Below, piece by piece: positions 1 through 21,533 of a stretch of 21,533 nucleotides of DNA. The DNA is taken from the IMG/VR virus record IMGVR_UViG_2713897073_000007; one strand, 5' to 3'. The DNA is from a virus. Lineage: Duplodnaviria; Heunggongvirae; Uroviricota; Caudoviricetes. The position numbers were made by a program, and so were the translations under genes. Every line of letters starts with the position of its first letter. Position 1 is the stretch's first letter. The notes under the pieces were generated by a model, which was given only the letters and a program-made list of their open reading frames with translations, was not told the DNA's origin and ran no database searches.

Positions 1-996
1 TTAACGAACCAGCCAGACCAGCATCAGGATAATCGCGACTAACAGTATCCACAGCGCGGGACGCGTTGCCATATTTTGCAACGTGTCCATCATCGGTGGA
101 AAAGGATTAAGCAGCGGTTGCATAACACGCGGATCAATCCCTTTAACCCGCCGTTGATAAAGCTGATTAAGAATATCCTCGGCCTGGGCAGAAGAAAGCG
201 ATGATTGCGCAGAAAGACCATATTTTTGCTGGATATATGCCGATAACGCCGCCAGTTCACTGGCATCTAAAGGTTGTTTTAGCGTCATCTGTAGTGATTC
301 CAGCGTCGGCGTATTTTGCTGGCTTAGCGTCTGACGCGCCTGTAGCCAGGTCACCAGATGGTTAAACAGTTTCGCTGGAATTAACTCGCCATCTTTCACC
401 CCGGAAAGTTCCAGCATCGATTGCCAGATCTGTTTGCTGGGTTCCCCCGTTGCCGCCGCAAGTTTGGTCACCAGCTGTTTTAGCGCATTGTGCTCCGCCG
501 GTAATAAAGGACGGTCGGTCGCCTCGCGCTGCTGTGGTTGCGGAATAACCATCTTCCCTTCCTGCAACAGGGTGAGAATGGTTTTTAATTGCTCCGGTGA
601 GAGCTGATTCAGCGGCGTCTGACCAAAGTTATGACGGATATAATCCGTGACCGCCTGACGATTATTCCCCAGACGTAAATACTCCCCTAATTGCGCTAAA
701 AGCTGGCGGGCAGAATGGCTTTTTTGCGCGGCCAGCAGACGTTGCGCCAGATTATGCTCAGCGGCAGGGAAGTGACGCGAAAGCAGCGGTGAATCTCCCG
801 ACAGACCAATATCGTGCCTGATACCCGCCCACAGTTCTGCTCTTTGCTGTTGCGTCAGTGAGGTCACTTTCGTCATTAAGCTTTCCAGCGAAGTACGTTG
901 CTGACTGGATAAAGGCTGATTGCCCGTGCCAGACGGCAGATTATCTCCCTGACCTGGTGGTTGCCCAGGAGGAGGGCCGGAAATAGGTTGTATCAT
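1..996 (-). CDS. flk: Flk-like tail-anchored inner-membrane protein (flagellar biosynthesis regulator Flk family); probable host core gene flanking the island
   Basis: 331-aa ORF with Pro/Gln-rich N-terminus (MIQPISGPPPGQPPGQ...) and a single hydrophobic helix at the extreme C-terminus (ALWILLVAIILMLVWLV); size and topology match Flk. Identification is from memory of the family, not a search. Confidence 0.45.
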   Translation of the reverse strand: MIQPISGPPPGQPPGQGDNLPSGTGNQPLSSQQRTSLESLMTKVTSLTQQQRAELWAGIRHDIGLSGDSPLLSRHFPAAEHNLAQRLLAAQKSHSARQLLAQLGEYLRLGNNRQAVTDYIRHNFGQTPLNQLSPEQLKTILTLLQEGKMVIPQPQQREATDRPLLPAEHNALKQLVTKLAAATGEPSKQIWQSMLELSGVKDGELIPAKLFNHLVTWLQARQTLSQQNTPTLESLQMTLKQPLDASELAALSAYIQQKYGLSAQSSLSSAQAEDILNQLYQRRVKGIDPRVMQPLLNPFPPMMDTLQNMATRPALWILLVAIILMLVWLVR

Positions 997-1199
997 TACG
1001 TATCCTTATACCTGAAATCTTCGCAAGTATGCCTGGCCGCGAGATTATGGCACACTTGTCCGGTTAACTCTCGTCTCATACAGGTAACACAAACGTGAAA
1101 ATCCTTGTTGATGAAAAAGATGTTGATTTAACTTTTTGATATAAAAGGATTTGTATCGGCGCATGTCCACGCAGTGACCACATTTTCGAGTTATAGATA

Positions 1200-1231
1200 A
1201 CACAAAGCCCGTTTTCACGGGCTTTGTGTTA
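1200..1231. terminator. Perfect 13-bp inverted repeat hairpin (AACACAAAGCCCG - 6 nt loop - CGGGCTTTGTGTT) just downstream of the minus-strand accessory operon and upstream of flk
   Basis: Read directly from sequence; GC-rich centre with U-rich stem ends; lies 15 nt after the stop at 1246. No clean T-run follows, so terminator function is inferred. Confidence 0.35.
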
Positions 1232-1245
1232 TCTGTGATTGTGGC

Positions 1246-2156
1246 TTAGCCGCATGATTTATACTGTTTCCAGTTACAGGCTTCTTGAAGCGGTTTTAGC
1301 GTGGTTGACAGGCCGTTTAAATTGAAAGTTGCACTTACAGGGCTTTCATTATAAGGGGTTATTTTTGCATACATTTTGTTTGAGTTGGCTAGTTTTCTGA
1401 TGAAGTTAATGTCATTGCCTTTATAAAAAACAGCCTTTGTATCTGTAGATACTAGCCAGTTTCGCTCAACTGCTTTCTGTTTATCAAGGCGATACAGCAT
1501 GCTGGTTTGTTCAAGGCCTAAATATACATCCCAATTAAGAAATACTTCGGTTTTCTTTTCTCGGCAAGCTATAAACAGAGTAGGGGTAACCGCTTCTCCA
1601 AATGGAGTTCTTATATAATCATCACTTTCTAACGATAAAATTACATTTTTCGAATCATCAATTGGCGATGTAGTAATGGATGTGTGCCATTTTCCTGTGT
1701 CTGTGGCTTTCTCTAATTTTGATTTAGATTGCGCAACTTTTTCCTGTGGAAATGGTTTATCGTAGCAGTTTATTCTAGTTTCTTTATCGTTTTCTGCTCG
1801 GCATTTAGATATCTCAGAAAGATTTGGTTGCTGAGCCTCTGTTGTTACTAGCTGTTTCGCTTTAGATTTTGAGCTTACAGGCGGAGTAAATGTTGGAGAA
1901 AAAAACGGTCATAACAAGATAAACGTCTGTCATCATCTTTCTCATCAGGGCATTGATCTCTGCTTTCGAATTTTTCAGCAACTGTCGTTCGAGTCGGTTG
2001 TATTGACTTATCATAACAAGAAAGTCTTTCTTTATTATTTTCTATTGCTCGGCACTGGAGTGATGACTTAAAGTTATTATGCTCAGTTGCTGCGTGAGCA
2101 GGTAGCACACTAATTGATATAAATGATGCACCTATAGAAATAATCATATTTTTCAT
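1246..2156 (-). pseudogene. Secreted Cys-motif repeat protein interrupted by a frameshift at a homopolymer (ORF 1875..2156 carries the signal peptide and two C-x8-9-RLxCYD motifs; the frame open from 1908 down to 1246 carries a third motif and about 220 further codons)
   Basis: N-terminal signal peptide MKNMIISIGASFISISVLPAHA-A. Motifs CRAIENNKERLSCYD, CPDEKDDDRRLSCYD in frame A and CRAENDKETRINCYD in frame B. Frame B has no ATG start of its own before 1500 and opens immediately after a stop at 1909-1911. The A7 run at 1899-1905 (T7 on the coding strand) sits exactly where the frames switch; one extra base would fuse them into an ORF of about 300 aa. Confidence 0.55.
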
Positions 2157-2160
2157 TTTG

Positions 2161-2493
2161 TTATCCCTTTGGTTTAGTAAGAAATACTAAATTTCCGATA
2201 ATGATATTGCAAATAACCCATAAGCCTCCAATAGCAATTAAACCTAAGCCCGTACCAATAACTGTACCGGCTTTTTCGGCATCGGATGTGGCGTTGTTTA
2301 TTATTTCACCCACCTCTCTTAGCCCAACACAAATCGTGTAGATTATAAAAATATTAAATAATATGAAAAAATACTTAATGAGTTCTCCAAAAAATGAACG
2401 TTTAAGTTTTTTCAGTTGTTTGCCACAAGCAGGGCAAGACAATACTGAATCGATCACCTCTTTCTGGCATTCAGGACATTTGATTAATGCCAT
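2161..2493 (-). CDS. Zinc-ribbon membrane protein (N-terminal CPxC...CPxC ribbon followed by two predicted transmembrane helices), AT-rich accessory gene
   Basis: ORF-track ORF 2161..2538; preferred start at the internal Met of MALIKCPECQKE..., which is preceded by AGGAGG at 8-nt spacing. Motifs CPECQ and CPACGK; hydrophobic stretches FFILFNIFIIYTICVGL and LGLIAIGGLWVICNIIIGNLVFL. Ends 4 nt before the downstream gene start at 2156 (operon). Confidence 0.6.
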   Translation of the reverse strand: MALIKCPECQKEVIDSVLSCPACGKQLKKLKRSFFGELIKYFFILFNIFIIYTICVGLREVGEIINNATSDAEKAGTVIGTGLGLIAIGGLWVICNIIIGNLVFLTKPKG

Positions 2494-2670: not shown

Positions 2671-2811
2671 TTACTGCTTACACTGTAAGAACGCCGCAAA
2701 CTCCGCTCCCCAGAAACTCATCCGTATTTCACACAGCGAACCGTGCAGCATCCAGATGATGAGGATTGCCGTCACGCAGAACGTGATGGCCGTAAGCGAT
2801 TTTTGCGACAT
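2671..2811 (-). CDS. hok: Hok/Gef-family type I toxin, 46 aa (MSQKSLTAITFCVTAILIIWMLHGSLCEIRMSFWGAEFAAFLQCKQ); below the ORF-track length cutoff
   Basis: Hand translation from ATG at 2811-2809 to TAA at 2673-2671, anchored on the ORF-track frames 2729..2941 and 2571..2759. Strong SD AAGGAG 8 nt upstream. N-terminal transmembrane helix followed by the family signature SLCEIR and a C-terminal E-x-AAF-L-x-C motif, as in Hok, Gef and HokA. Confidence 0.7.
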   Translation of the reverse strand: MSQKSLTAITFCVTAILIIWMLHGSLCEIRMSFWGAEFAAFLQCKQ

Positions 2812-3001: not shown

Positions 3002-3262
3002 TTAATCCTGAGGTAAAGGCAAACTCATCTGATTGTTTCCCCTGTGTGAAGCTGGCAGCTCATGCCACGGGATACCTTCTGATGAGTGAACGCCGGAGGC
3101 GTGTTTCGATGTGAATTTATGGAAAGCTTCCAGTGTTGAGAAGCATACGCCGCATTCCAGATTGTTACACTGGTAATACTTTTGCCGCACGGTGTTTGAA
3201 TCATTTTCCGGACGACTGGTGCGGATACGGGCAGATGCGCCACAAAGCGGACAACGGAACAT
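3002..3262 (-). CDS. ogr: Ogr/Delta-family zinc-finger late-gene transcription activator
   Basis: MFRCPLCGASARIRTSR...YYQCNNLECGVCF matches the P2 Ogr pattern MFHCPLC...RTSR...HQCQNVNC as recalled; Cys4 zinc finger; sits directly downstream of gene D as in P2. At 86 aa it is longer than P2 Ogr (72 aa). Confidence 0.85.
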   Translation of the reverse strand: MFRCPLCGASARIRTSRPENDSNTVRQKYYQCNNLECGVCFSTLEAFHKFTSKHASGVHSSEGIPWHELPASHRGNNQMSLPLPQD

Positions 3263-3304: not shown

Positions 3305-4414
3305 TCACTCTGTTTCCGCTATCCATTCCGGGATTTTTGCCTCAAGCTCAAGCTGCGTGGTAAAGCCGCTGTTATCAATGGTGTGCCCGGCTTTTGCAAT
3401 AATCCAGTCCTGATTATCAATCTCGCTTTTAAATCCTGTTACCGTGCCATGCATTTCGGGGTAGAGCTCTGCACGTCCACGCGCCAGCGTGATGGAGAAT
3501 GATGCGGCTCCGCGTTGTAGTTGCTGCCACTTTGCCGCCGCTGCGCGTCTTGCTGCCTGCTCGTTCTGATAAGTCTTGCGTAACACAAACACATTGCCTT
3601 CCGCGCCTTCCATATAATCACCTTCACGGCTGCTGCTTTTCTCCTTTTTGGGTTTTGGCGGTTTACGGCGTTTCACGCTGACTTTTTTCTTTTTCCCGTA
3701 ATTAAGATCAAGCCAGTAGGCGCGTACCCCCGTATACGCCTCGCGGTCAGCAATGCGGAACTGATGGCGATCGCCGCTGCTGCGTGTAATGGCGAACGAG
3801 GGCAACGGCTGGCCCTGTGCGTTCACGCCACCACCTGGCATGATGAATAACAGATTGCCGCTTTTTACCGTGGTGATTGCACCCAGCATTTCCGCCATGC
3901 GCGTAAGGAAGGACATGTCGCTTTCTTCGGTCTGGTCGGCGTGGTCGATTTCGATATCCATCAGCATTTCGCTGATTTGCGGTTTCAGACCATACCGATG
4001 AGCGATGGCGGATACCACACGCTCAACGGTCACATCATGCCAGGACACCTCACGTTTAACGTTAAATTCATCCCAAAAATCTGCGCTTCTGGCTGAAACA
4101 GTCAGCCTGTCCGGCGGTCCTTCGTGAGCGATTTCATCAACAATGTAAGTGCCTTTTTCTGTCAGCGGTTCTCCCTTCCAGCCAATGAGAACCGTCAGGC
4201 GCGCGCCCCGTGGCGGTAGCTGCAACTGACCATCCGCATCATCCAGCGTGATGGTGAGCTGGTCCGCCTCAAATCCCCGGTTGTCGGTCAGTGACAGGCT
4301 CATCAGGCGCTCTGCCACGCCTGACAGCGTTTTACCCTCCGCGAGAATATCAAAATCCGGCATTTTTACGGGGTCTGTGCCCTGACTGAGCAATTGCATG
4401 GTGGTGTCGGTCAT
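3305..4414 (-). CDS. D: P2 gpD-like tail protein (late control gene D family)
   Basis: ORF-track ORF 3305..4546. Protein has the conserved SLSLTDNRGFEADQL block, a central Lys-rich stretch (KKKKVSVKRRKPPKPKKEK) and C-terminal NSGFTTQLEL typical of gpD. Preferred start is the internal Met of MTDTTMQLLSQ (about 4414), preceded by GGGAGGGAG. Confidence 0.85.
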   Translation of the reverse strand: MTDTTMQLLSQGTDPVKMPDFDILAEGKTLSGVAERLMSLSLTDNRGFEADQLTITLDDADGQLQLPPRGARLTVLIGWKGEPLTEKGTYIVDEIAHEGPPDRLTVSARSADFWDEFNVKREVSWHDVTVERVVSAIAHRYGLKPQISEMLMDIEIDHADQTEESDMSFLTRMAEMLGAITTVKSGNLLFIMPGGGVNAQGQPLPSFAITRSSGDRHQFRIADREAYTGVRAYWLDLNYGKKKKVSVKRRKPPKPKKEKSSSREGDYMEGAEGNVFVLRKTYQNEQAARRAAAAKWQQLQRGAASFSITLARGRAELYPEMHGTVTGFKSEIDNQDWIIAKAGHTIDNSGFTTQLELEAKIPEWIAETE

Positions 4415-4571
4415 CTGCTCCCTCCCTGTGCGGCATGGTCGCATGTGCGTGCGGAGGGGGTTACTGCTTTTTGTTGTCGCCGTGGCGAGAGAACGGCGCA
4501 GGGGTGAGATTACGCGCGTGGTGGGTGATGATTGTTGCCGAATCATTTAACGGATACAAGGGGCTGAAGCT

Positions 4572-5756
4572 ATGAGTGAAACTCGTTTTCATGGTGCCCG
4601 TGTTACGGAAAATACCGACCTGGTAACAGCGATTAACGATGTTGATTCCAGCGTTATCGGTATCGTGGCAACGGCGGATGATGCGGACGCGAAGCTGTTC
4701 CCGCTGAACAAGCCCACACTGCTGACCCGCGTCAATGACGTGCTGGGAAAATGCGGGACAACGGGGACGCTTTATCGTGCGCTTAAGGCCATCGCAGACC
4801 AGGTGAGTACAAAGGTGATCGTCGTTCGCGTGGCTGAACACAAAGAAGAAGACGGAAAAACGCAGGATCAACTGGTTATCGGTGGTTCTGAATCTGACGG
4901 CAGCTATACGGGGATGTATGCGCTGCTTGTTGCAGAGCAGGATGAAAGCATCGGATACCGTCCGCGTATTCTGGCCGCGCCGGAGCTGGACACGGAGGCG
5001 GTAACAAAATCCCTGTGCGTGATTGCGGGTAAACTGCGCGCGTTTGTGTATGCCTCATGTCACGGCTGTAACACGATGGCTGAGGCGATTACCTACCGCC
5101 AGAAATTCAACGAACGTGAGGTGATGCTCTTATGGCCGGACTTCATCGCCTACAACCCGAAAAGTGGCAAAAACGAAACGTTCCCCGCGCCTGCCTATGC
5201 GTGCGGCCTTCGTGCGTACATTGACCATGAGCAGGGTTGGCACAAATCGCTGTCCAACGTTCCGGTTAAAAATGTGCTGGGGATGTCCAGGCATGTGTTC
5301 TGGTCGTTGCAGGCCGAAGACAGTGATGCCAACAGCCTCAACAACAAAGAAATCACGACCATTATTCGTCGCAACGGGTTCCGCTTCTGGGGCAACCGCA
5401 CACCGGAAACGAACGCCTACATCTTTGAGGTGTATACCCGAACCGCACAGGTGCTGGCTGATTCAATTGCGGAAGCGCAGTTTGAAACCATCGATAGTCC
5501 ACTGACGCCTGCGAACGTGAAGGATGTTATCAGTGCCATCAGGGCAAAACTGGATTCACTGGTGACTGCCGGGAAACTGATTGGGGCGTCGTGCTGGTAT
5601 GACGTGGTGGATAACAGCACCACGAATTTACGTCAGGGGCGTGTGCGTATTCGCTACAAATATACGCCCGTTCCTCCGCTGGAAGACATGGAGCTTTACC
5701 AGTCGTTTACTGATGAATTCTTTGGTCCCGCATTTGCGGTGCTGGGAGGTGCCTGA
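4572..5756 (+). CDS. FI: Contractile tail sheath protein (P2 gpFI family)
   Basis: 394 aa; N-terminal region ...ADDADAKLFPLNKPTLLT... aligns with recalled P2 FI (...ASDADAETFPLNKPVLIT...); SD AAGGGG upstream; followed immediately by the tube gene. Confidence 0.9.
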   Translation: MSETRFHGARVTENTDLVTAINDVDSSVIGIVATADDADAKLFPLNKPTLLTRVNDVLGKCGTTGTLYRALKAIADQVSTKVIVVRVAEHKEEDGKTQDQLVIGGSESDGSYTGMYALLVAEQDESIGYRPRILAAPELDTEAVTKSLCVIAGKLRAFVYASCHGCNTMAEAITYRQKFNEREVMLLWPDFIAYNPKSGKNETFPAPAYACGLRAYIDHEQGWHKSLSNVPVKNVLGMSRHVFWSLQAEDSDANSLNNKEITTIIRRNGFRFWGNRTPETNAYIFEVYTRTAQVLADSIAEAQFETIDSPLTPANVKDVISAIRAKLDSLVTAGKLIGASCWYDVVDNSTTNLRQGRVRIRYKYTPVPPLEDMELYQSFTDEFFGPAFAVLGGA

Positions 5757-6268
5757 TGGCTGTACCAAAACATCTTCGCTTTTTTACGCTGTTTGTGGAT
5801 GGTGAAAACGAAGTGGGTAAGGTGACGTCCGTCACCCTGCCTAAACTGACGCGCAAAACCGACAGCTACCGGGGTGGTGGCATGATGGGTGCGGTAAGTA
5901 TTGATCTCGGTCTGGACGACTCCGCGCTTGATGCGAGCTTTGTCATGGGGGGCGCAGTTCGTGAGCTGTTCCTTAAGTATGGCGGCACGATTGACGGCAC
6001 GCTACTGCGTTTTGCGGGTGAATACTACACCGATGCAGAAAGCGACCTGTATGAAGTCGAAATGCGCGGACGCGTGACGGAAATTGATATGGGGGAAGCC
6101 AAACAGGGCGAAGCCACATCACACACTTACGCCATTAAAAACACCTACTACAAGCTGAGTGTTAACGATCGTCCGTTGTGGGAGATTGACCTGCTGAACT
6201 TCATTTACCGGAAGGACGGCAAGGACATTGTGCCCGATCGCATCCGTTCCGCGCTTGGGCTTGGCTGA
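5756..6268 (+). CDS. FII: Tail tube protein (P2 gpFII family)
   Basis: 170 aa; start overlaps the FI stop (TGATG); position and size match FII; N-terminal pattern ...FVDGENEVGKVTSVTLPKLTRKTDSYRGGGM resembles recalled P2 FII. Confidence 0.85.
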   Translation: MAVPKHLRFFTLFVDGENEVGKVTSVTLPKLTRKTDSYRGGGMMGAVSIDLGLDDSALDASFVMGGAVRELFLKYGGTIDGTLLRFAGEYYTDAESDLYEVEMRGRVTEIDMGEAKQGEATSHTYAIKNTYYKLSVNDRPLWEIDLLNFIYRKDGKDIVPDRIRSALGLG

Positions 6269-6322
6269 TAAGTAATATGCAGGCGGCGCAGTGCGTCGCC
6301 TCTGACTGAAAGGAGTTTCCTG

Positions 6323-6688
6323 ATGAAAGAGACGAAAAACATCGATACCGAAAACACGGTAGTTGCTGACACTGTGAAAGAAACCAGTGAGCGTGGCGTA
6401 AAACTTACCCAACCAATTGAGCGAGGCGGCGAAAAAATCACGTATGTGGAGATCACCGGGGCTATTGAGCAGGCTGGATCTCTGCGAGATTTGTCGCTGT
6501 CTGATGTGCTGAATCTGAAAGCGGAATCCATGTTTACGCTGCTGTCACGAGTGACATCACCGCGACTGGATGAAGTGACGATCAAAAAAATGGCATCCCG
6601 TGACTTTATTCAGTTATGTGTGGTTGCCGTAAATTTTTTGAGCGGTGCGGACTCTGGCGGGAAGAACGAACAGGCGACGGAAGCCTGA
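6323..6688 (+). CDS. E: Tail assembly chaperone gpE (zero-frame product)
   Basis: 121-aa ORF between the tube and tape-measure genes; contains the T TTT TTG slippery heptamer in frame; synteny with P2 E. Confidence 0.8.
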   Translation: MKETKNIDTENTVVADTVKETSERGVKLTQPIERGGEKITYVEITGAIEQAGSLRDLSLSDVLNLKAESMFTLLSRVTSPRLDEVTIKKMASRDFIQLCVVAVNFLSGADSGGKNEQATEA

Positions 6689-6852
6689 TCACGGTTGTGT
6701 GCTTTGAGCACATAGAAGACTTTGTGGCAGATATTGCCGTTATTTTTAACTGGTCGCCCGCCGAAATCTTCATGATGACGCCCGGCGAAGTGGTTAGCTG
6801 GCGTGAGCGGGCGGCACTTCGCAGCGGGAATGCAGACAATGAAGACTCTTGA
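6323..6852 (+). CDS. E': gpE+E' fusion product made by programmed -1 ribosomal frameshift at 6634-6640
   Basis: ORF-track frame 6616..6852 is -1 relative to E and is closed by a TGA at 6601-6603, so it can only be entered by slippage downstream of that point. The heptamer T TTT TTG at 6634-6640 is in the correct zero-frame register. The E' frame ends by overlapping the tape-measure start. Confidence 0.7.
6634..6640 (+). other. Slippery heptamer T TTT TTG (programmed -1 frameshift site for E/E')
   Basis: Read directly; E-frame codons AAT TTT TTG (N F L), -1 frame codons TTT TTT GAG (F F E), matching both ORF-track translations (VNFLSGADS and KFFERCGLW). Confidence 0.7.
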
Positions 6853-9646
6853 TATCCGGGTCGCTTTCAGCGCCGTTGACAGGCTGACCCAGCCTGCCGA
6901 AAACGCCCGCCGCCTGATGGGGCAGTTTGGTGACTCCATCCAGCGAACGCAGGGGGCGATCAAAAATCTCGAGCGTCAGGCGCGTTCATTTGAGCGCGCC
7001 CGCGACGCTGTCAGTAAAGCGGATGCGGGTATCGTGAAAGCACGACGCCAGCTTAACGCCCTTAATCAGTTACAACGCACGGGTACAGTGCTCAGCGAAA
7101 AACAACAAAAGCTGATGCAGCAGTTAAGCACCCGGCTTGAACGCCTGAATGAATCGCGCACGCGGGAAATTCAGAAAATGCGGGAGCTTGGCGGAGAGCT
7201 GAAACGCCACGGCATTTCCCTGACAGGCAGCGATAACACCATCCAGCAGGCCATCAGACGCACCGAACAGTACAACAATCAGCTTGAACGCGAACGGCAG
7301 GCGCTTGCGCGTGTAACGCGGGCGCGTGAGCGGTATTCGCGCGCGCAGGAAACAGCGGGAAAACTGAAAACAGGTGGTGCACTGGCAATTGGTGCGGCAG
7401 CGGCGGGCGGCTATGCTGCCGGGCGTTTTTTGCAGCCTGCGATCGGGTTCGGGAAAGAGATGTCCCGCGTTCAGGCACTGACGCGAATCGACCAGAACAG
7501 CCCGCAGTTTAAGGCGCTGCGTGAGCAGGCGTTAAAACTTGGCTCTGAAACGCAGTTCACCGCAGGCGATGCCGCCAGTGGGCAGGCATTTCTGGCAATG
7601 GCTGGCTTCACACCGCAGGCCATTCAGGCTGCGCTTCCCGGCGTGCTGAGCATGGCAACGGCTGGCGGTATGGACCTTGGCGAGACGGCAGATATTGGCT
7701 CAAATATCCTGACGCAGTTCGGCCTCTCCGCTGACCAGATGGACCGGGTCGGTGACACGCTTACAGCAGTGTTTACCCGTACTAACACTGACCTTCGCGC
7801 ACTGGGCGAAACCATGAAATATGCAGGTCCGGTGGCGGGTAAGCTGGGAATATCGCTGGAGCAGGCCGCAGCGATGGCGGGCGTGCTGGCGAATATGGGT
7901 ATCAGAGGGAGTGATGCCGGGACGGCAATGCGTGCCAGCCTGGCTCGTCTGGCATCACCGCCAAAGGCGGCAGCAGAAGCGCTGAAAGAGCTGGGTGTGT
8001 CCGTCTCTGATGCGAACGGCAAAATGCGCCCGATGGAAGATGTGCTGGCCGACCTTTATAAAGCCACCCGTAAATACGGGGAAGTTGACCGGGTATCGTT
8101 CTTTAAGGACATTGCCGGGGAAGAGGCTTTCACGTCGTTTATGGCTCTCGTTGATGCGGCGGGTGACGGCTCCCTGCCCAAACTGAGAAAAGAACTTGAG
8201 GGCGCACGCGGTGAGGCTGAACGCACGGCAAAGGTTATGGCCAATAACCTTGATGGCGACCTGAAATCACTCGGCAGTGCATGGGAAGGGCTGCGTATCC
8301 GCATTGCAGATCTGATTGATGGTCCGCTGCGTTCTGTCACGCAGTGGCTCACGCGGGTGGTCTCAAAGGTGACGGCGCTGGCACAGGCCCATCCGGTACT
8401 GACGCGCCAGTTACTGATAGCAGGCGGTGCGCTGCTGGCAATGACTGCAACGGTTGGCTCGTTGTCGCTGGTTATTGGAGTGCTTCACGGGAAGCTGGCC
8501 ACGTTGCGTCTTGGTTTTTCTCTCCTGACCGGATCAATGAATGCTGTCAGGCTCCTGCCAGCACTATGGGGAATGGTGACGGGTTCCGTTTCGTTACTGG
8601 GGGGCGCTATCGGGGCGCTGTTCAGCCCGGTCGGATTGATTGCTGCTGCGTTTGTGGCTGCGGCAGTTCTCATCTGGAAATACTGGGAACCCATCAAGGC
8701 GTTTTATGCCGGGGTGTTCAGCGGGATTATGGAGCGGCTGGCCCCGTTACGCGAAACCTTTGAACGGTTTGGTCCTGTTTTTGACGCAATCGGAAGCGGG
8801 ATAAGTCAGGTGTTTAACTGGTTTAAATCGTTGCTGTCACCGATGGAGTCCAGCAAGGAAACGCTGGATAAATGTACCAGTGCTGGCGAGATATTCGGTA
8901 ACGTTCTTGGCGGTGCGTTACAGCTTGTTCTGACGCCCGCAAAAATGTTGCTGGATACGCTGGCGTGGATACTTGAAAAACTCGGTGTGCTTCCGGATGA
9001 AGCGGAAAGGGCGAGAAAGAAAATCGAAGACGCACAGCGTGCGGCCATTCTTCAGGACAAGGTTGCTCTGTTTCAGGGAGACATTGCGAAAATCAATCCG
9101 CCGAAGTCTGCGGAAAATGGCAATGGCACCGGAGGTGATAAACCCAAAGACAATAAACCGCTCACAGACAGCAATACCGGTACGCTACGCAGACTCAGCA
9201 AAATTGCTGATAACACAGGTAAGCTGGTTGATGAGACGAAAAAACGTATTGGCCCCGGCGATATTGTCTTTAAGAACCTGCCCCGCGCACTTGCCGTTCG
9301 TGGGGAGTGGCAGGAGCGGAAGATTGTGCAGGTCAGTAAGCCTGCCCCCGCAATTAATATCACACCCGTGGTCCCGGCTCCGCTGCCTCCGGCGCTGGTC
9401 CCTGTTGTTGCGGCCAGCTCCCGCCCGGTGGCGGAGGCCATACGATCTCCAGTGGCATCAGTTCCTGTAACTTCCCGTAACCGGGAGCCTGTTGCCTCCG
9501 GATTTGGTGGTGAAATTCATGTTCATCTGCATAACGTTGTTACGCAGAATCCCCGCGAACTGGCGAAACTGGTCGGTGAAATGGTCAGGGCAGAAATGGA
9601 ACGGCGCGCCCGTGCCGGGCGTGGCAGTTTTTACGATAAAGATTGA
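6803..9646 (+). CDS. T: Tail tape measure protein (P2 gpT family)
   Basis: 947-aa ORF; long N-terminal coiled-coil-like region, central hydrophobic segments (LLIAGGALLAMTATVGSLSLVIGVL...), Pro/Ala-rich C-terminus; located between E/E' and U. True start may be the in-frame ATG at 6830 or 6839, overlapping the E' stop. Confidence 0.9.
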   Translation: MSGRHFAAGMQTMKTLDIRVAFSAVDRLTQPAENARRLMGQFGDSIQRTQGAIKNLERQARSFERARDAVSKADAGIVKARRQLNALNQLQRTGTVLSEKQQKLMQQLSTRLERLNESRTREIQKMRELGGELKRHGISLTGSDNTIQQAIRRTEQYNNQLERERQALARVTRARERYSRAQETAGKLKTGGALAIGAAAAGGYAAGRFLQPAIGFGKEMSRVQALTRIDQNSPQFKALREQALKLGSETQFTAGDAASGQAFLAMAGFTPQAIQAALPGVLSMATAGGMDLGETADIGSNILTQFGLSADQMDRVGDTLTAVFTRTNTDLRALGETMKYAGPVAGKLGISLEQAAAMAGVLANMGIRGSDAGTAMRASLARLASPPKAAAEALKELGVSVSDANGKMRPMEDVLADLYKATRKYGEVDRVSFFKDIAGEEAFTSFMALVDAAGDGSLPKLRKELEGARGEAERTAKVMANNLDGDLKSLGSAWEGLRIRIADLIDGPLRSVTQWLTRVVSKVTALAQAHPVLTRQLLIAGGALLAMTATVGSLSLVIGVLHGKLATLRLGFSLLTGSMNAVRLLPALWGMVTGSVSLLGGAIGALFSPVGLIAAAFVAAAVLIWKYWEPIKAFYAGVFSGIMERLAPLRETFERFGPVFDAIGSGISQVFNWFKSLLSPMESSKETLDKCTSAGEIFGNVLGGALQLVLTPAKMLLDTLAWILEKLGVLPDEAERARKKIEDAQRAAILQDKVALFQGDIAKINPPKSAENGNGTGGDKPKDNKPLTDSNTGTLRRLSKIADNTGKLVDETKKRIGPGDIVFKNLPRALAVRGEWQERKIVQVSKPAPAINITPVVPAPLPPALVPVVAASSRPVAEAIRSPVASVPVTSRNREPVASGFGGEIHVHLHNVVTQNPRELAKLVGEMVRAEMERRARAGRGSFYDKD

Positions 9647-9652
9647 GGAGTC

Positions 9653-10147
9653 ATGGCCATGATGATGATCTACGGCATGTTTGTTTTTGAGCTGCGCACG
9701 CTGCCGCATCAGCAGTTACAGCAAAACAAAAGCTGGCGGCATGTGAAAAATGAACGCGTTAACCGTTCAGCAAGCTGGCAGTATATCGGTGCAGGTGATG
9801 ATCGCATCGTTCTTTCTGGTGTGCTTTATCCTGAAATTACAGGTGGCGAAGTGTCGCTGTCGCTGCTGACCACGCAGGCGTATACAGGACGACCCTGGCC
9901 TTTGATTGATGGCGTCGGGCAGATTTACGGCATGTATGTCCTGACCGGAACGAACACGACCCGTTCCGAGTTTGATCGCTACGGTAAGGCGAAAAAGATA
10001 GAATTTTCACTGACCCTTGAACGCTGTGATGAGGATTTGCGGGAGCGCCTGCAATCCTCATCGTTCAGCGATATGCTGTCCGGCTTCAAAGATAAAGTGA
10101 CATCATCCCTTAACAGCGCGGCCAGTTCAGTTAAAGGGCTGTTCTGA
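9653..10147 (+). CDS. U: Tail protein gpU
   Basis: 164 aa directly after T; N-terminal FVFELRTLPHQQLQQNKSWRH and LSGVLYPEITGG resemble recalled P2 U. Confidence 0.8.
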   Translation: MAMMMIYGMFVFELRTLPHQQLQQNKSWRHVKNERVNRSASWQYIGAGDDRIVLSGVLYPEITGGEVSLSLLTTQAYTGRPWPLIDGVGQIYGMYVLTGTNTTRSEFDRYGKAKKIEFSLTLERCDEDLRERLQSSSFSDMLSGFKDKVTSSLNSAASSVKGLF

Positions 10148-10309: not shown

Positions 10310-10795
10310 ATGCTGAATAATAGAGATATGAATATTAATGAACTTAAAGACTGTATTCACTATGAAGTAATCGGTAGCGAGCGTCCTTTCTCCTGGCGAA
10401 AGGCAATTGTTCGCGCAATAAAACATAGAAGACTTCGTTATTTATTTTGGTGGCGCATAGCCAAATACCTTTTTGATAAAGGCGGATACTGCCGGAAGAT
10501 TGCGGGGAAAATAGAACGTTTCATTCTTGATAAATATAATGTAACAGTCCCTTTAACTGTAAATATAGGGAAAGGCTTTGATATTTCTTATCTCAACAGT
10601 GTTGTTATCGGTCACAAAGTAACAATCGGTGAAAATTGTTCAATAAAACCGGGGGTAACTATTGGGCTACGTGGTGATTTTAATGATATGGATATTGTTA
10701 TAGGACATAATGTGACCATTGGTTGTAATGCCACCATTCTTGGTGGCAAAGTGCGTATAGGAAACAATGTCACAATAGGTGCTCATGCATTGGTA
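10310..10795 (+). pseudogene. 3'-truncated hexapeptide-repeat (left-handed beta-helix) acyltransferase, AT-rich cargo gene
   Basis: Tandem hexapeptide repeats VTIGENCSIKPGVTIG / IVIGHNVTIGCNATILGGKVRIGNNVTIGAHALV; the last 23 aa of the ORF (TTTFKNFKESLTITSFFRIVAVK) are the reverse-strand reading of the tail-fibre fragment, so the gene is cut at about 10795. Confidence 0.6.
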
Positions 10796-11290
10796 ACCAC
10801 CACCTTCAAGAACTTCAAGGAGTCCCTGACCATAACTTCCTTCTTCCGGATAGTTGCGGTCAAATGAAGCGATTGAGCCACTACTGTTTCGCCATAAACC
10901 AAGATGCTCTGCGCCTCCGAGCGTGTTCAGGTCAATGGTTGTGCTCAGGGGGCGTGTTGCAGACTGAACCTGACGCCAGTAACTCCACGGACCGTCTGAA
11001 CCATTCCATGTGCCAGAAAGGTTGCGCATATAAACATTGCCTGTTCTGGTGGTGTAACGCTGCATTCCTGCAAAATTACCGCCATTGAATACCTCCAGTA
11101 CACCGACTGCACCGTCTTCAGGGAAATTTTTAGCAGCCGTCGCGTTAGTGGATGTAGCTTTAGACCAGACGCCAAGATAAGCCTTAACGGGACCAAATGT
11201 ATTCAAGTCAGCATCAAGCGGCATTTCGCCATTGTTTTTCATAAACGTCAGGCTGGTAACGCCAACATTGTCCAGAAAAGCGCCCTTATC
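10796..11290 (-). pseudogene. Internal fragment of a phage tail fibre gene (gpH-like), truncated at both ends
   Basis: ORF-track ORF 10667..11242 with its frame open upstream to about 11290. Gly/Asn/Thr/Ser-rich fibre-like sequence (GVLEVFNGGNFAGMQRYTTRTGNVYMRNLSGTWNGSDGPWSYW...GQGLLEVLEGGGY). The final 40 aa are an antisense read of the acyltransferase DNA. Family assignment is by composition and synteny only. Confidence 0.45.
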
Positions 11291-11835
11291 TCCACGCGTT
11301 GCACACCGTGCACATGCAGTGCGGCAGCAATGGCGGACAACGCCACGTCCTGACCGATAAGCCCCTGCTCAGCCAGCCACTTCCTGAACGACGATTCAGC
11401 CGCAGCCAGAATAGGTTCGGATTCCGGGCCGGGATAAAAGTACAGTTTTGCATTCAGCCGCCATGTCACGATTCTGGCGCTCTGTACGGTCAGGCGGTCG
11501 GCCACCGGGCGGGTATCCTCTGCATTCAGAACGGCACGAACGGTATTAAGCAACGCCTCCGTTGCTGTGCCGTCGCCTTCAGTGGACAGGATGGAAACCG
11601 TCACACAGGCCGGAGACGGGCTGATGGCCCGCGCATCACGCACCAGACCGCTGGCGCTGCGTGCAAAATACTCGTATGCACCTGACGGGCCAGCAACACT
11701 CAGGCCGTCGTACGCCCGCTGCGCCCGCAGTCTCAGCGAGGTGTCGCTCTCCATCACCGCGTCGGTGGTATCCGTTGCCGGAGTGATAACCAGGCGCTTT
11801 GTGTTCATATTGCCCGCGAGGTTGTCCAGGTCTGT
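11248..11835 (-). pseudogene. J: Baseplate protein gpJ fragment lacking the N-terminal third and probably the C-terminal end
   Basis: ORF 11248..11886; the segment TKRLVITPATDTTDAVMESDTSLRLRAQRAYDGLSVAGPSGAYEY...SPSPACVTVSILS...RPVADRLTVQSA...YFYPGPESEPI...LHVHGVQRVEI matches recalled P2 J residues from about 100 to 270. The first 17 codons of the ORF are an out-of-frame read of capsid-gene DNA. Confidence 0.65.
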
Positions 11836-12463
11836 CATCCAGCAGGGATGAGCGCGCGTCCTGTACCAGTGCATCAGCGTTCGCATACTTACCCGCGTGC
11901 GCCACTGTGTTGTCCATGTTGCGGGAAGTCAGCGTCACGTCATTCATTACGCGTTCACTGGCATCGGTTCTGATGTGCTCCAGCCAGCCCACGTTAACGT
12001 CCTGAAGCAGCTTGTTGGTGCTGAAATTGGATTTTTCCGCGTGTGATGTGCCGTTAAAGCCGATCATGATGCGGTCAAGCGCCACCTGCCGGGCAATCTG
12101 TGTGCTGATGCGCGACTGAAAATCGCTGTGAGCCGCCCAGGCATCAAGCTTCGGGTATGAAATAAACGTGTCGTAGTTCACCTGTTCACACTGGTACTGA
12201 CGAGCCTTCATATCGACAGCGTTAATCGGATTACGGCGATCTGTGCCGTCATAACTGGTATTCGTGCGCGCAATCGGCCCGGTGGTGTCCAGGAGAACTT
12301 TTTCGCCTTTCTGGTCAGTTACACCGATTACATTAATTCTTTTCGTAAATTCGGTACTTTCCTTTGAAGCGTTTTCAAAACGCTGTTGTACCGATGGATT
12401 GACGGTAAATCGCGATACCAGCGCAGAAACCGGGATATTGTTAAGCGACGCCTGCTGCGTCAT
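11836..12463 (-). pseudogene. N: Major capsid protein gpN fragment (N-terminal about 210 aa)
   Basis: ORF 11636..12463; FTVNPSVQQ...RINVIGVTDQKGEKV...YQCEQVNYDTFISYPKLDAWA...IMIGFNG...LLQDVNVGWLEHIR...ADALVQDA matches recalled P2 N N-terminal region. Homology stops near 11836, after which the frame reads J-fragment DNA. Confidence 0.65.
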
Positions 12464-12508: not shown

Positions 12509-13765
12509 ATGATTCAGGACGCTTTTGTGCGCCAGCGTGCGCGGCAACTTTACTGGCAGGGTTATCCGCCCGCAGAAATATCACGTCTGATGGGAATAAA
12601 CCCGAACACGATTTATGCGTGGAAAAAACGCGACCAGTGGGATGAAACGCCCCCCGTGCAGCGTGTCACGCAGTCCATCGATGCGCGCCTCATCCAGCTT
12701 ACTGAAAAACAGAATAAAACAGGCGGTGACTTTAAGGAAATAGACCTGCTGACCCGGCAGCTTAAAAAGCTGCATGATGGCCAGCCGGATGTGATGGCCG
12801 CAGGAAAGAAAGGCCGGGCGAAAAAACTTAAAAATCATTTCACGCCGGAACAGATTGCCGCACTGCGGGAAAAAATCATCAGCAGGCTGGAGTGGCATCA
12901 GCGGGGCTGGTTTGACTCCCTGACACTTTGCAGGGAAGCCGGGATACGTAACAGGATGATCCTGAAATCCCGACAGATTGGGGCGACCTGGTATTTTGCA
13001 CAGGAAGCTCTGCTGATGGCGCTGCGTGACGATGTGGCGCAACCTTACCAGCGTAACCAGATTTTTTTGTCTGCGTCGCGTCGTCAGGCGTTCCAGTTTA
13101 AAAGCATTATTCAGAAGGTCGCGGCTGAAGTTGATGTGGAGCTGAAAGGGGGCGATAAAATCATCCTCTCCAACGGCGCAGAGCTGCATTTTCTCGGCAC
13201 TTCTGCTGCGTCGGCACAGTCCTATACGGGCAATTTTTATTTTGATGAATTTTTCTGGGTCAGTCGCTTTGCTGAACTGCGCAAGGTGGCTGGCGCTATG
13301 GCAACCCTCAGCGGACTGCGGCGCACCTACTTCTCCACGCCATCCACCGAAACGCACGAGGCGTACGCCTACTGGAACGGCGACCGCTGGAACGAGAAAA
13401 AGGCCTCGCATAAACGCCAGCGTTTTTCTGTGGACTGGAAAACGCTGCATAACGGGCTTATCTGCCCTGACCGGACTTGGCGGCAAATTGTCACGCTGGA
13501 AGATGTGGTTAATCACGGCTGGAAACACACCGATATCGACGAAATTCGTGATGAAAACACCGAAGACGAGTTCCTCAATCTCTATATGTGTGAGTTTGTC
13601 CGCGAAGGGGAATCGGCATTTAACCTGAATATCCTGATTGGCTGCGGTGTTGACGGATACGACGACTGGAAAGACTGGAAACCTTTTGCTCCCCGCCCGA
13701 TGGGGAATCGTCCGGTATGGATTGGGTATGACGCAAACGGCAGCAGTGGCAACGGCGACACCGTG
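12509..13765 (+). pseudogene. P: Terminase ATPase (large) subunit, P2 gpP family, 3'-truncated
   Basis: ORF 12386..13840; preferred start MIQDAF at 12509 with SD GGGGGAG; Walker-A-like KSRQIGATWYFAQEA; the last roughly 25 aa (RMPYQRRPSRFSFLRTAAKNELTR) are an antisense read of the gpA fragment. Family size is about 590 aa, so roughly 170 C-terminal residues are missing. Confidence 0.7.
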
Positions 13766-15042
13766 CGGATGCCATACCAGCGCAGGCCGTCGCGGTTCAG
13801 TTTCTTGCGGACCGCCGCAAAAAACGAGTTAACCAGGTAATCGCTGGAGTCGCGCATAGTGGCCCCGTTCCATTTGGGATTCGGATGACCGTTCTCCGTT
13901 GTTGCGTGGTATTTTGACGGGCAGGTGACAGTCAGAAACACCGCTCTGTCGCCACGGGCTTCGGCCAGAAGTTCCAGCCCCTTCATGGTGGCCATCATTT
14001 CTGCCTTACGGTGAACCGGGTTACTTACTCCCGCGTAATACACTGTCTCAAGATCAATCGTGAACCCGTCTTCGTTTTCCAGCATGAAACTTTTCAGGAA
14101 ATCGCGTGTTTTCTCGCGCTGTGCGCGAAACTCGCTTAACGCATCCTGGCTCAGATAGGGCGATGTTTTTCTGGAAACCAGACAGGCGGCGCGGAGTTGT
14201 TCTTCTCTCCACTCGCAACGTAACAGCCACAGTTTGCGTTTCCACCATTCCGCACAGGTCAGGCGAAGGATTGCGCCCGGCAGCAGCTCCGTGTCTGGTT
14301 CGTTCCTCCGGCCTTTGTCTGTTGTCAGTGCGTCATAATGCGGAGGCATGGCGTGCAGGTGTAACGCCATGCGGGCCAGCATCTGATACGCCTTCAGCGT
14401 TACATCCATGGTCAGCTCGCCATCAGTCGCACCAAAGCCATCGCAGAGTTTTTCGAAGGTGCTGCTGAACATCGCCGCCGTCATGGTGGCCAGCGTCTGT
14501 ATCTGGTGTTTGTTGAGCTGCGGCAGGTAAAGCAAATCGTCCAGGCGTTCGCGTCCGGCAAGGGAGCGATAACCCGGTGTCAGCCAGTGTCCGTCAGTGC
14601 GATCCAGACGTTCGAATATTTTGCGCAGGGTTCCGCGTGCATAGCGTTCTGCCTGCCAGCTCTTTTTGCCTTTCCGGCGATCGACTTCCTGTTTTTTGCG
14701 CAGGAAGGAGAGGTGGCGAATAAGCGGATCGCGCAGATAGGACGGCAGCAGGCGCAGCGAGGCCATGGCTTCATCCACCGCGCCGCGTGCCTGTCTTCTG
14801 GCGTCTCCTGCCAGCGTGATGGTTTTGTCCTGTTTTTCCTGTGCGTCCAGGCTTTTATTAATCAGGTTGCCCAGTGGCGTGGCAGAGAACGCCGCATCAG
14901 CCTTTTCCTGTCGGCGCTCGTTCTCTGCCTGGTAGGCATCCAGCCAGGAGGAAAGCGCGGATTCAGGTGCGGGGATCCCCGTTCCTTCACGCCCCACTGC
15001 GTGGCGCGGTTGTTGCCAGTCCCTGATGTACTCTGTCGTCAT
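13759..15042 (-). pseudogene. A: Replication initiation protein gpA family (rolling-circle initiator), 3'-truncated after about 428 aa
   Basis: ORF 13582..15042 directly downstream of the early operon; sequence up to ...GLRWYGIRTV is protein-like, the following 58 aa are Pro/Ser-rich antisense of terminase DNA. P2 A is about 760 aa. Convergent with the P fragment. Confidence 0.65.
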
Positions 15043-20432: not shown

Positions 20433-20528
20433 GGCCAGAAAACTGGTTAGACCTGCTTTTTGTCTGGTCTGATTATTGCTGGAAAGAGGCTGGAGAAATT
20501 GTAGAGCGGTTCATTGGAGGGCTTCGTA

Positions 20529-21533
20529 ATGTCGATTAAGAAGCTCGAAGATGGTCGTTATTTGCTGGACATCAGGCCGAACGGACGCAAGGGAAAGCGC
20601 GTGCGTAAGGTATTTGACAAAAAATCGGTAGCGGTGGCCACTGAACGCTACATCATGGCGAACGCTGAAAAGCGGGAATATATACAGGGCTACCGTGATC
20701 GTCGAACGCTAAATGATTTGCTTGAGTTGTGGTGGATGTATCACGGCCAGCACAGGCGTAAGGCGGAAGAAGACCGAAAACAACTGCGCAACATAATCAA
20801 TGAGCTTGGCGCTGATATGCAGGCTGTGGATCTTGATAAGCTGAAAATTATCGCGTGGCGTTCTCAAAAGATAGCTGAAGGATTGAAACCGTCATCTGCT
20901 AACAGGTACATGAATCGGTTATCCGGAATGTTTACCGTGCTGAAAAAAATAGGTCTTTGGGATGCAGAACATCCAGTAAGGGGAATTTCTATTCTTTATG
21001 TATCTCCACGAGAAATGGCGTTCCTGTCACAGAAGGAAGTGGCGCTATTGCTCGATACACTGGAGGGCGACTACTGGCGTGTTGCGCTTTTGTGTTTAAG
21101 CACAGGGGCGCGCTGGAGTGAAGCTTGTAAGCTTCGTGGTGAACAGATAGTTCATAACCGTGTAACGTTTCTTGAAACCAAAAATGGCCGGAAGAGAACA
21201 GTGCCAATTTCGCAGGCAGTTTGTGAGGCGATCAAAACCAGAGAAACAGGCGGCTTGTTTGAGGTGAAGTACCGGGAATTCTGCCTGGCGCTGAAAAGAG
21301 TTAAGCCCGATTTACCAAAAGGCCAGGCTGCACATGTGCTGCGGCATACGTTCGCCAGCCATTTTGTGATGAACGGAGGAAACATTATTGCGCTTCAGAA
21401 GATTCTTGGTCACGCAACCATTCAGCAAACAATGGCATATGCGCATTTTGCACCGGATTACCTGCAGGATGCGGTGGCCCTTAATCCGCTGAAAGGTGGC
21501 GTAAGTGTCCACGCAGTGTCCACGGGGGATTAA
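20529..21533 (+). CDS. int: Tyrosine recombinase, P2-type integrase
   Basis: ORF-track ORF 20514..21533; MSIKKLEDGRYLLDIRPNGRKGKRVRK N-terminus, LSTGARWSEA, HVLRHTFASHF...GGNIIALQKILGH...MAYAHFAPDYLQDAVALNPL catalytic-domain motifs match recalled P2 Int. Preferred start at 20529 (GGAGGG 7 nt upstream). The stop coincides with the window end, so the att site lies outside the window. Confidence 0.9.
   Translation: MSIKKLEDGRYLLDIRPNGRKGKRVRKVFDKKSVAVATERYIMANAEKREYIQGYRDRRTLNDLLELWWMYHGQHRRKAEEDRKQLRNIINELGADMQAVDLDKLKIIAWRSQKIAEGLKPSSANRYMNRLSGMFTVLKKIGLWDAEHPVRGISILYVSPREMAFLSQKEVALLLDTLEGDYWRVALLCLSTGARWSEACKLRGEQIVHNRVTFLETKNGRKRTVPISQAVCEAIKTRETGGLFEVKYREFCLALKRVKPDLPKGQAAHVLRHTFASHFVMNGGNIIALQKILGHATIQQTMAYAHFAPDYLQDAVALNPLKGGVSVHAVSTGD

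Follow-up and report, generated by a model that had tools for sequence, protein, structure and literature searches.

Within a 21,533-nucleotide viral record of IMG/VR (IMGVR_UViG_2713897073_000007; hereafter the window), we identify a VasI/TagO-family prophage cargo gene that has, with a probability that we put at about 90%, been inactivated by a heritable and recurrent one-base deletion that shortened a run of eight T to seven (T8 to T7), and which is thus an ordinary inherited pseudogene.

We propose the following course of events. The intact gene would encode a Sec-exported cargo protein of the VasI/TagO family, of ~297 aa, at the right end of a P2-like prophage. Its T8 run, in the codons CGT TTT TTT TCT (Phe-Phe-Ser), has lost one T in the window, most likely by replication slippage. 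Translation then ends seven codons past the tract and releases a 93-aa stub, presumably without function, while the remaining 220 codons, with the whole VasI domain, are left without a start codon or a signal peptide. The lesion is heritable and fixed in the lineage, the gene drifting from then on as a pseudogene in a defective prophage.

A single gene split at a homopolymer

The locus is one gene and not two. On the minus strand, a 5′ fragment of 93 codons (1875..2156) and a 3′ fragment of 220 codons in the -1 frame (1246..1908), which has no usable start or signal peptide, meet at a T7 homopolymer (A7 on the plus strand; 1899..1905), the site of a one-nucleotide deletion relative to the intact T8 allele. 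The minus strand reads GAC CGT TTT TTT CTC CAA CAT TTA CTC CGC CTG TAA at this point: past the tract, the 93-aa ORF runs through seven out-of-frame codons (LQHLLRL) and stops. The 3′ frame opens directly behind a TGA at 1909-1911 and has its first ATG only at 1500. Adding one T to the tract yields a single ORF of 303 aa, and removing one T yields no single ORF. Because orthologues that differ only by having T8 are annotated as one 297-aa gene, the change of frame can be placed in the 1899-1905 run. The original prediction, made from the sequence of the window, had described two open frames that change over at this run, the second beginning behind the 1909-1911 stop with no ATG before 1500, and had proposed that one added base would restore an ORF of about 300 aa; all of its coordinates hold.

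Runs of this length are not rare in themselves, and the window has seven A7/T7 runs. In frame 0 this one is read CG-U UUU UUU-C, which specifies the two conserved Phe residues in the peptide RFFSPTF. At the other end of the gene, the 3′ frame has gained a six-codon extension (QYKSCG) because the normal TAG stop of the family has become CAG (1264-1266, minus strand), both in the window allele and in an enterotoxigenic E. coli (ETEC) plasmid copy; in T8 alleles and in other genera, the protein always ends in ...AC[GN]WK. Just 3′ of the gene, inspection by eye revealed a hairpin, AAAGCCCG-TGAAAA-CGGGCTTT (1204..1225, minus strand), which is a likely terminator, and for which a strict consensus terminator scan gave no call.

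The 93-aa ORF includes a predicted Sec-type signal peptide (MKNMIISIGASFISISVLPAHA/ATEH, 2091-2156) and two Cys motifs, CRAIENNKERLSCYD (2010-2054) and CPDEKDDDRRLSCYD (1908-1952). A third, CRAENDKETRINCYD (1759-1803), is found in the 220-codon 3′ frame together with a linker and a VasI/IalB-like beta domain (from about 1695 down to 1267); all of these lie on the minus strand. The motif is therefore present three times, as first noticed, but its spacing is C-x8-R-[LI]-x-C-Y-D (C-x11-C) in every copy and does not vary between x8 and x9.

Family membership and predicted structure

A profile search with the conceptually repaired protein returned a full-length match to Pfam VasI (PF11319), at 83.6 bits where the gathering cutoff is 26.5; residues 118-296 cover the whole profile (1-184/184). 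Nearer the N-terminus, two further motifs match profile positions 1-24, and the 93-aa stub alone scores 27.8 bits over the same positions. The motif, which had been suspected to define a new domain, is thus the first 24 positions of PF11319, here triplicated. The suspicion that the family is uncharacterised was better founded: a 2026 review treats TagO and VasI as the same protein and gives its role as unknown, also when it is encoded in a cluster (PMC13584744). The VasI-like gene itself is already known at the levels of family, annotation and literature. RefSeq genomes identical to the window label the 5′ piece “hypothetical protein” and name the 3′ piece “type VI secretion system-associated protein TagO”, and the literature has a counterpart, ORF1 of PhiSM, among cargo genes under the name “T6SS VasI family protein” (PMC6456863).

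With VasI of V. cholerae (VC_A0118)/TagO (PF11319, TIGR03360), the repaired protein has in common an N-terminal C-x8-RLxCYD motif and a C-terminal domain, over the full length of the model. It differs by having three motif copies where the VasI model has one, and by its location in a P2-like prophage near ogr and not in a type VI secretion system (T6SS) cluster. Against TIGR03360, the NCBIfam equivalog for T6SS VasI, it scores 72.2 bits, under the cutoff of 124.2, and there are no T6SS genes in the 21.5-kb window, where the neighbours are ogr, gpD, tail sheath, tube, tape measure, gpU, gpA and integrase. The motif is present once, twice or three times in homologues of about 215, 250 and 297 aa, respectively, which come from Klebsiella, Enterobacter, Salmonella, Pectobacterium, Pantoea and E. 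coli. PADLOC returned no defence-system match for the VasI-like protein or for its zinc-ribbon neighbour, and matches in PHROGs were to function-unknown families only (phrog_1848 and phrog_6586).

We modelled an intact homologue (P0001, 90% identical) with AlphaFold2 from a 23-sequence alignment. In the model, each motif forms a helix-turn-helix hairpin (pLDDT about 75-83), and the three hairpins, with disordered linkers between them, are followed by a confident C-terminal beta domain (pLDDT 85-94), whose cysteines C198 and C294 are invariant across the family alignment. Disulfides would probably form inside each hairpin (C-x11-C) and across the beta domain, the candidate pairs in 297-aa numbering being Cys35-47, 69-81, 119-131 and 198-294, and the intact protein is likely to be periplasmic. 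A profile search of PDB sequences gave no match, and fold matches in BFVD were to uncharacterised proteins throughout. The beta domain recalls IalB of Bartonella henselae (PDB 3dtd; Pfam PF06776), which has 17% sequence identity to the VasI-like protein and lacks the Cys-hairpin repeats; on the model, this likeness would be one of fold only and carries no functional implication.

Position in the prophage

The left end of the window is E. coli chromosome, with flk at 1..996 (minus strand). Identity with E. coli K-12 ends at 1117/1118, in the junction on the attR side (1095..1118, plus strand), after the first 7-8 codons of pdxB (GTG AAA ATC CTT GTT GAT GAA AA / phage DNA). Everything above 1117/1118, the VasI-like gene included, is prophage, and since the junction falls inside the first eight pdxB codons, the insertion site of the phage is the 5′ end of pdxB, beside flk. 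The VasI-like gene is thus the last one before attR of a P2-like (Peduoviridae) prophage lying between flk and pdxB.

From the junction, the prophage genes come in the order VasI-like, zinc-ribbon, hok, ogr and gpD, with sheath, tube, E, tape measure and gpU on the other strand; the integrase (20514-21533) runs off the end of the window. The zinc-ribbon gene (2161..2493, minus strand; Zn_Ribbon_1, phrog_6586) is intact and its product, a probable membrane protein, has a hydrophobic C-terminal half. Four nucleotides separate its stop from the ATG of the VasI-like gene, which makes co-transcription of the pair probable. The hok/gef-family toxin gene (2671..2811, minus strand; PF01848) is part of this cargo block as well, which extends from ogr to the end of the prophage, and the ogr/Delta late-gene activator (3002..3262, minus strand) is the last core P2-like gene before it. 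Between 1000 and 3400, Rfam gave no match at gathering threshold, and in particular no sok-type RNA near hok.

The order ogr, hok, zinc-ribbon, VasI-like is also found at the genome end of phages PhiR44_2, P88_4B11 and Citrobacter PhiSM. Their VasI-like proteins (ORF1 of PhiSM from Citrobacter rodentium and its counterparts) have ~89% amino-acid identity to that of the window, the same three-motif architecture, the same place and the same partner gene. These copies are intact, with a T8 or a TTC-interrupted tract, whereas the window copy is frameshifted, has the substitution L135P and is read through its stop. More widely, the zinc-ribbon/VasI pair recurs in other P2-like phages, and every homologue context that we sampled lies between ogr and the prophage end.

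The prophage of the window is itself defective. Between gpU (9653-10147) and gpA (13582-15042), head, baseplate and fibre genes survive as fragments: the N-terminal part of the major head protein (11636-12463), part of baseplate J (11248-11886) and part of a tail-collar fibre (10667-11242), all on the minus strand. A hexapeptide-repeat transferase cargo gene (10310-10867, plus strand) is found in the same region.

Census and ancestral state of the tract

We searched complete E. coli genomes with 81- and 82-nt queries and identity bands, and scanned IMG/VR and metagenome contigs for exact patterns. The VasI-like gene is carried by about 235 of 5,426 complete E. coli genomes. The exact T7 81-mer occurs in 40 RefSeq records from many laboratories, and most of the remaining carriers are one base longer and have a single TagO gene annotated. 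When 60 records spread over the 235 were sampled, 12 of them (about one fifth) were one base shorter than the T8 query; T8 with an intact 297-aa gene accounts for about 80% of E. coli copies. Over 1,701 nt that include the T7 tract, nine complete genomes match the window at every base. Scans for T6 to T10 gave six T7 and ten T8 copies in IMG/VR, and three T7 and five T8 copies in metagenome contigs, with no other tract length among these 9 and 15 copies.

Orthologues in E. coli MB06101 (99% identical) and in an ST131 isolate (93% identical) each have a T8 tract, and the annotation gives one TagO gene of 297 aa. In other orthologues the run is interrupted. T8 is the intact, majority and ancestral state.

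The T7 allele is not confined to chromosomes. Several ETEC plasmids of virulence-plasmid size (86-148 kb) carry the same prophage-end fragment with a T7 VasI-like allele, and ETEC plasmids are among the 40 records with the exact T7 81-mer, which means that the dead allele has moved between replicons. On plasmid p120899_146 (locus L006, NZ_CP025917.1), positions 6234-8697 hold a partial gpD, ogr, hok, the zinc-ribbon gene and a VasI-like gene with both T7 and C47Y, and the fragment adjoins a group II intron and other gene remnants.

Independent losses and decay of the T7 alleles

A neighbour-joining tree of 34 copies, built on about 900 nt with indel columns ignored, places T7 in three separate clades. 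The first is the window type (6 haplotypes), sister to MB06101-type T8 copies; the second, the RIVM_C019217 type (3 haplotypes), is sister to another T8 haplotype; and the third, formed by E. coli DEC5A and an independent IMG/VR contig, falls within the ST131-type T8 copies. In this 34-copy tree, none of the T7 clades contains a T8 copy. A T7 segment might in theory pass from one allele to another by recombination. In each case, however, the SNPs on either side of the tract, at 3 nt upstream and at 17 nt downstream, match the local allele, which argues for independent deletions and not for one transferred segment. The T8 to T7 loss arose at least four times, on different allele backgrounds. 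In the third clade, the copies of E. coli O55:H7 DEC5A (L004, 2788-3679) and of the IMG/VR contig (L023) have lost a second base as well, from T6 to T5 at codon 6.

Once shortened, the alleles decay. Within T7 clades we counted no synonymous and 13 non-synonymous substitutions, against 14 synonymous and 12 non-synonymous within T8 clades (Fisher p = 0.0009); the 13:0 ratio rests on small counts and is more skewed than the roughly 3:1 expected under neutral change. Among the changes in T7 clades are C47Y, which removes a motif cysteine in the plasmid copy, R199L beside the invariant C198, and R120stop in one lineage. The window allele has L135P, at a position where the other aligned homologues bearing motif 3 all have Leu or Ile, and also V129I. 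As far as can be read from the substitutions, this is the pattern of a gene no longer selected once frameshifted.

Thus, the recent inactivating slip that had been offered as one reading of the locus is borne out as inactivating, but not as especially recent: at least 40 RefSeq records inherit T7, and six haplotypes have arisen since. Homopolymer frameshift pseudogenes of bacteria and of decaying prophages likewise show a clonal single-base loss, a run of eight and neutral decay, here within a prophage that has other deletions. The present case is of the same kind as these, and all that stands out is that at least four independent events struck one tract. In every frame of E. coli genes, U7 and A7 runs are under-represented, for which indel mutation or transcriptional slippage has been suggested (Sharma et al. 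2014, PMC4066793). The recurrent loss at this tract fits a plain mutational hot spot.

Alternative explanations

The losses could have another meaning if the intact module is useful to its host. The zinc-ribbon and the VasI-like gene (with 1-3 Cys hairpins) follow ogr beside the host junction in 6/6 P2-like contexts examined, from several enterobacterial genera. Intact, the two could constitute an unrecognised lysogenic-conversion system, whose targets might be contractile injection machines; it might, for instance, shield the lysogen from attack by T6SS, tailocins or myophages. If so, selection and not drift would explain why the module is repeatedly lost at its T8 hot spot in E. coli lineages, and especially in ETEC. 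The conserved pairing, a fusion of the two proteins (P0052, see below) and the four independent inactivations might support such a role, which we consider doubtful.

A second possibility, also raised by the original prediction, is that the tract is a contingency locus, that is to say a slipped-strand ON/OFF switch for phase variation of a phage-encoded envelope protein. The same one-nucleotide loss occurred at least four times independently at the tract, roughly a fifth of carriers would be OFF, and the product is exported, as phase-variable products usually are. Nonetheless, we consider a switch very unlikely. The T7 clades are monophyletic with no reversion to T8 inside them, only T7 and T8 are seen, and among close relatives we found no two-way interconversion of tract states. 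The OFF alleles are not otherwise intact under purifying selection: they gather a stop codon and changes of invariant residues, 0 synonymous to 13 non-synonymous. Nor is the repeat conserved in orthologues, as synonymous TTC codons break it in close ones (TTC TTT TCT in PhiR44_2 and Citrobacter PhiSM, TTT TTC TCG in Klebsiella 3LV2017) while the peptide RFFSPTF is kept; judged from these codons, the T tract is a matter of codon choice only and not designed. Moreover, eight bases is short for an efficient slipped-strand switch.

Recoding would rescue the T7 allele in another way, a -1 ribosomal slip or RNA-polymerase slippage giving full-length protein at a reduced dose. The tract does lie exactly in the register of a slippery X_XXY_YYZ heptamer in the zero frame (codons 84-86, 1907-1899), and a -1 slip there gives ...DRFFSPTF..., the same as the T8 product. 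In E. coli, U_UUU_UUU (U_UU.U_UU.U) supports >0.1% -1 frameshifting without stimulators and, when a pseudoknot is present, belongs to the efficient H_HH.U_UU.Y class (PMC4066793). Since this heptamer is shift-prone, traces of full-length protein could be made from the T7 allele, read-through at that level being physically plausible; a functional rescue finds no support. We found no stimulatory element around the tract, either a downstream stem-loop or pseudoknot (the 79 nt downstream fold at -8.4 kcal/mol, no better than shuffles, z = -0.14) or a Shine-Dalgarno-like element visible upstream. The two-frame arrangement is not conserved in homologues: the in-frame T8 arrangement is ancestral, and a single frame is found in about 80% of E. 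coli copies and in all copies from other genera. Finally, purifying selection does not act on the downstream frame of T7 alleles, where one lineage has a nonsense mutation. Recoding as a means of rescue is therefore highly improbable.

That the missing T is a sequencing or assembly error in a gene that is really intact, as had also been envisaged, is the least credible reading: homopolymers are error-prone on several platforms, and the DEC5A copy, with two separate one-nucleotide homopolymer deletions in 900 nt, does resemble long-read noise, but the exact T7 81-mer in 40 RefSeq records from many laboratories, the nine window-identical genomes, the T7 copies in IMG/VR and metagenome assemblies, the lineage-specific derived substitutions that T7 copies have in common and by which they form clades, and the exact reproduction of the DEC5A double lesion in the independent contig L023 together mean that such an error is excluded by recurrence across independent assemblies.

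Annotation and further observations

As the copy in the window is dead and its family is catalogued, the inherited pseudogene has little significance for the window itself. It matters more for annotation: in dozens of RefSeq genomes, one frameshifted gene is annotated as a “hypothetical protein” plus a start-less “TagO” fragment. Furthermore, since the VasI-like family recovered here is cargo of P2-like prophages, the label “type VI secretion system-associated” is no evidence of a T6SS in the strains that carry it. The VasI-like and zinc-ribbon pair is a conserved prophage-end cargo of P2-like phages across enterobacteria, and cultivable phages with an intact module (P88, PhiR44_2 and PhiSM) are the place to seek its function.

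In one Logan contig only (L016, 6001-6732), a single chain (P0052) starts with a zinc ribbon, followed by a hydrophobic segment and a VasI domain with one motif, in the post-ogr position of a P2-like prophage. This fusion, as a possible Rosetta-stone link, hints that the zinc-ribbon and VasI-like proteins act together.

Two shorter database proteins considered as products of T7 alleles (P0006 and P0025) proved to be contig-truncated or noisy and are uninformative on the tract, and the “VasI” of a hotspot preprint is the author name Vasili and not the protein.

In the window, the gpD-ogr and sheath-tube-E-T-U blocks are divergent (3305-4546 on the minus strand / 4572-5756 on the plus strand). 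In P2 itself they are not; the divergent arrangement also occurs in PhiR44_2 and is therefore normal for this phage group. Lastly, the longest gpD ORF in the window has an N-terminal extension of ~45 codons, where RefSeq annotates only 266 codons.
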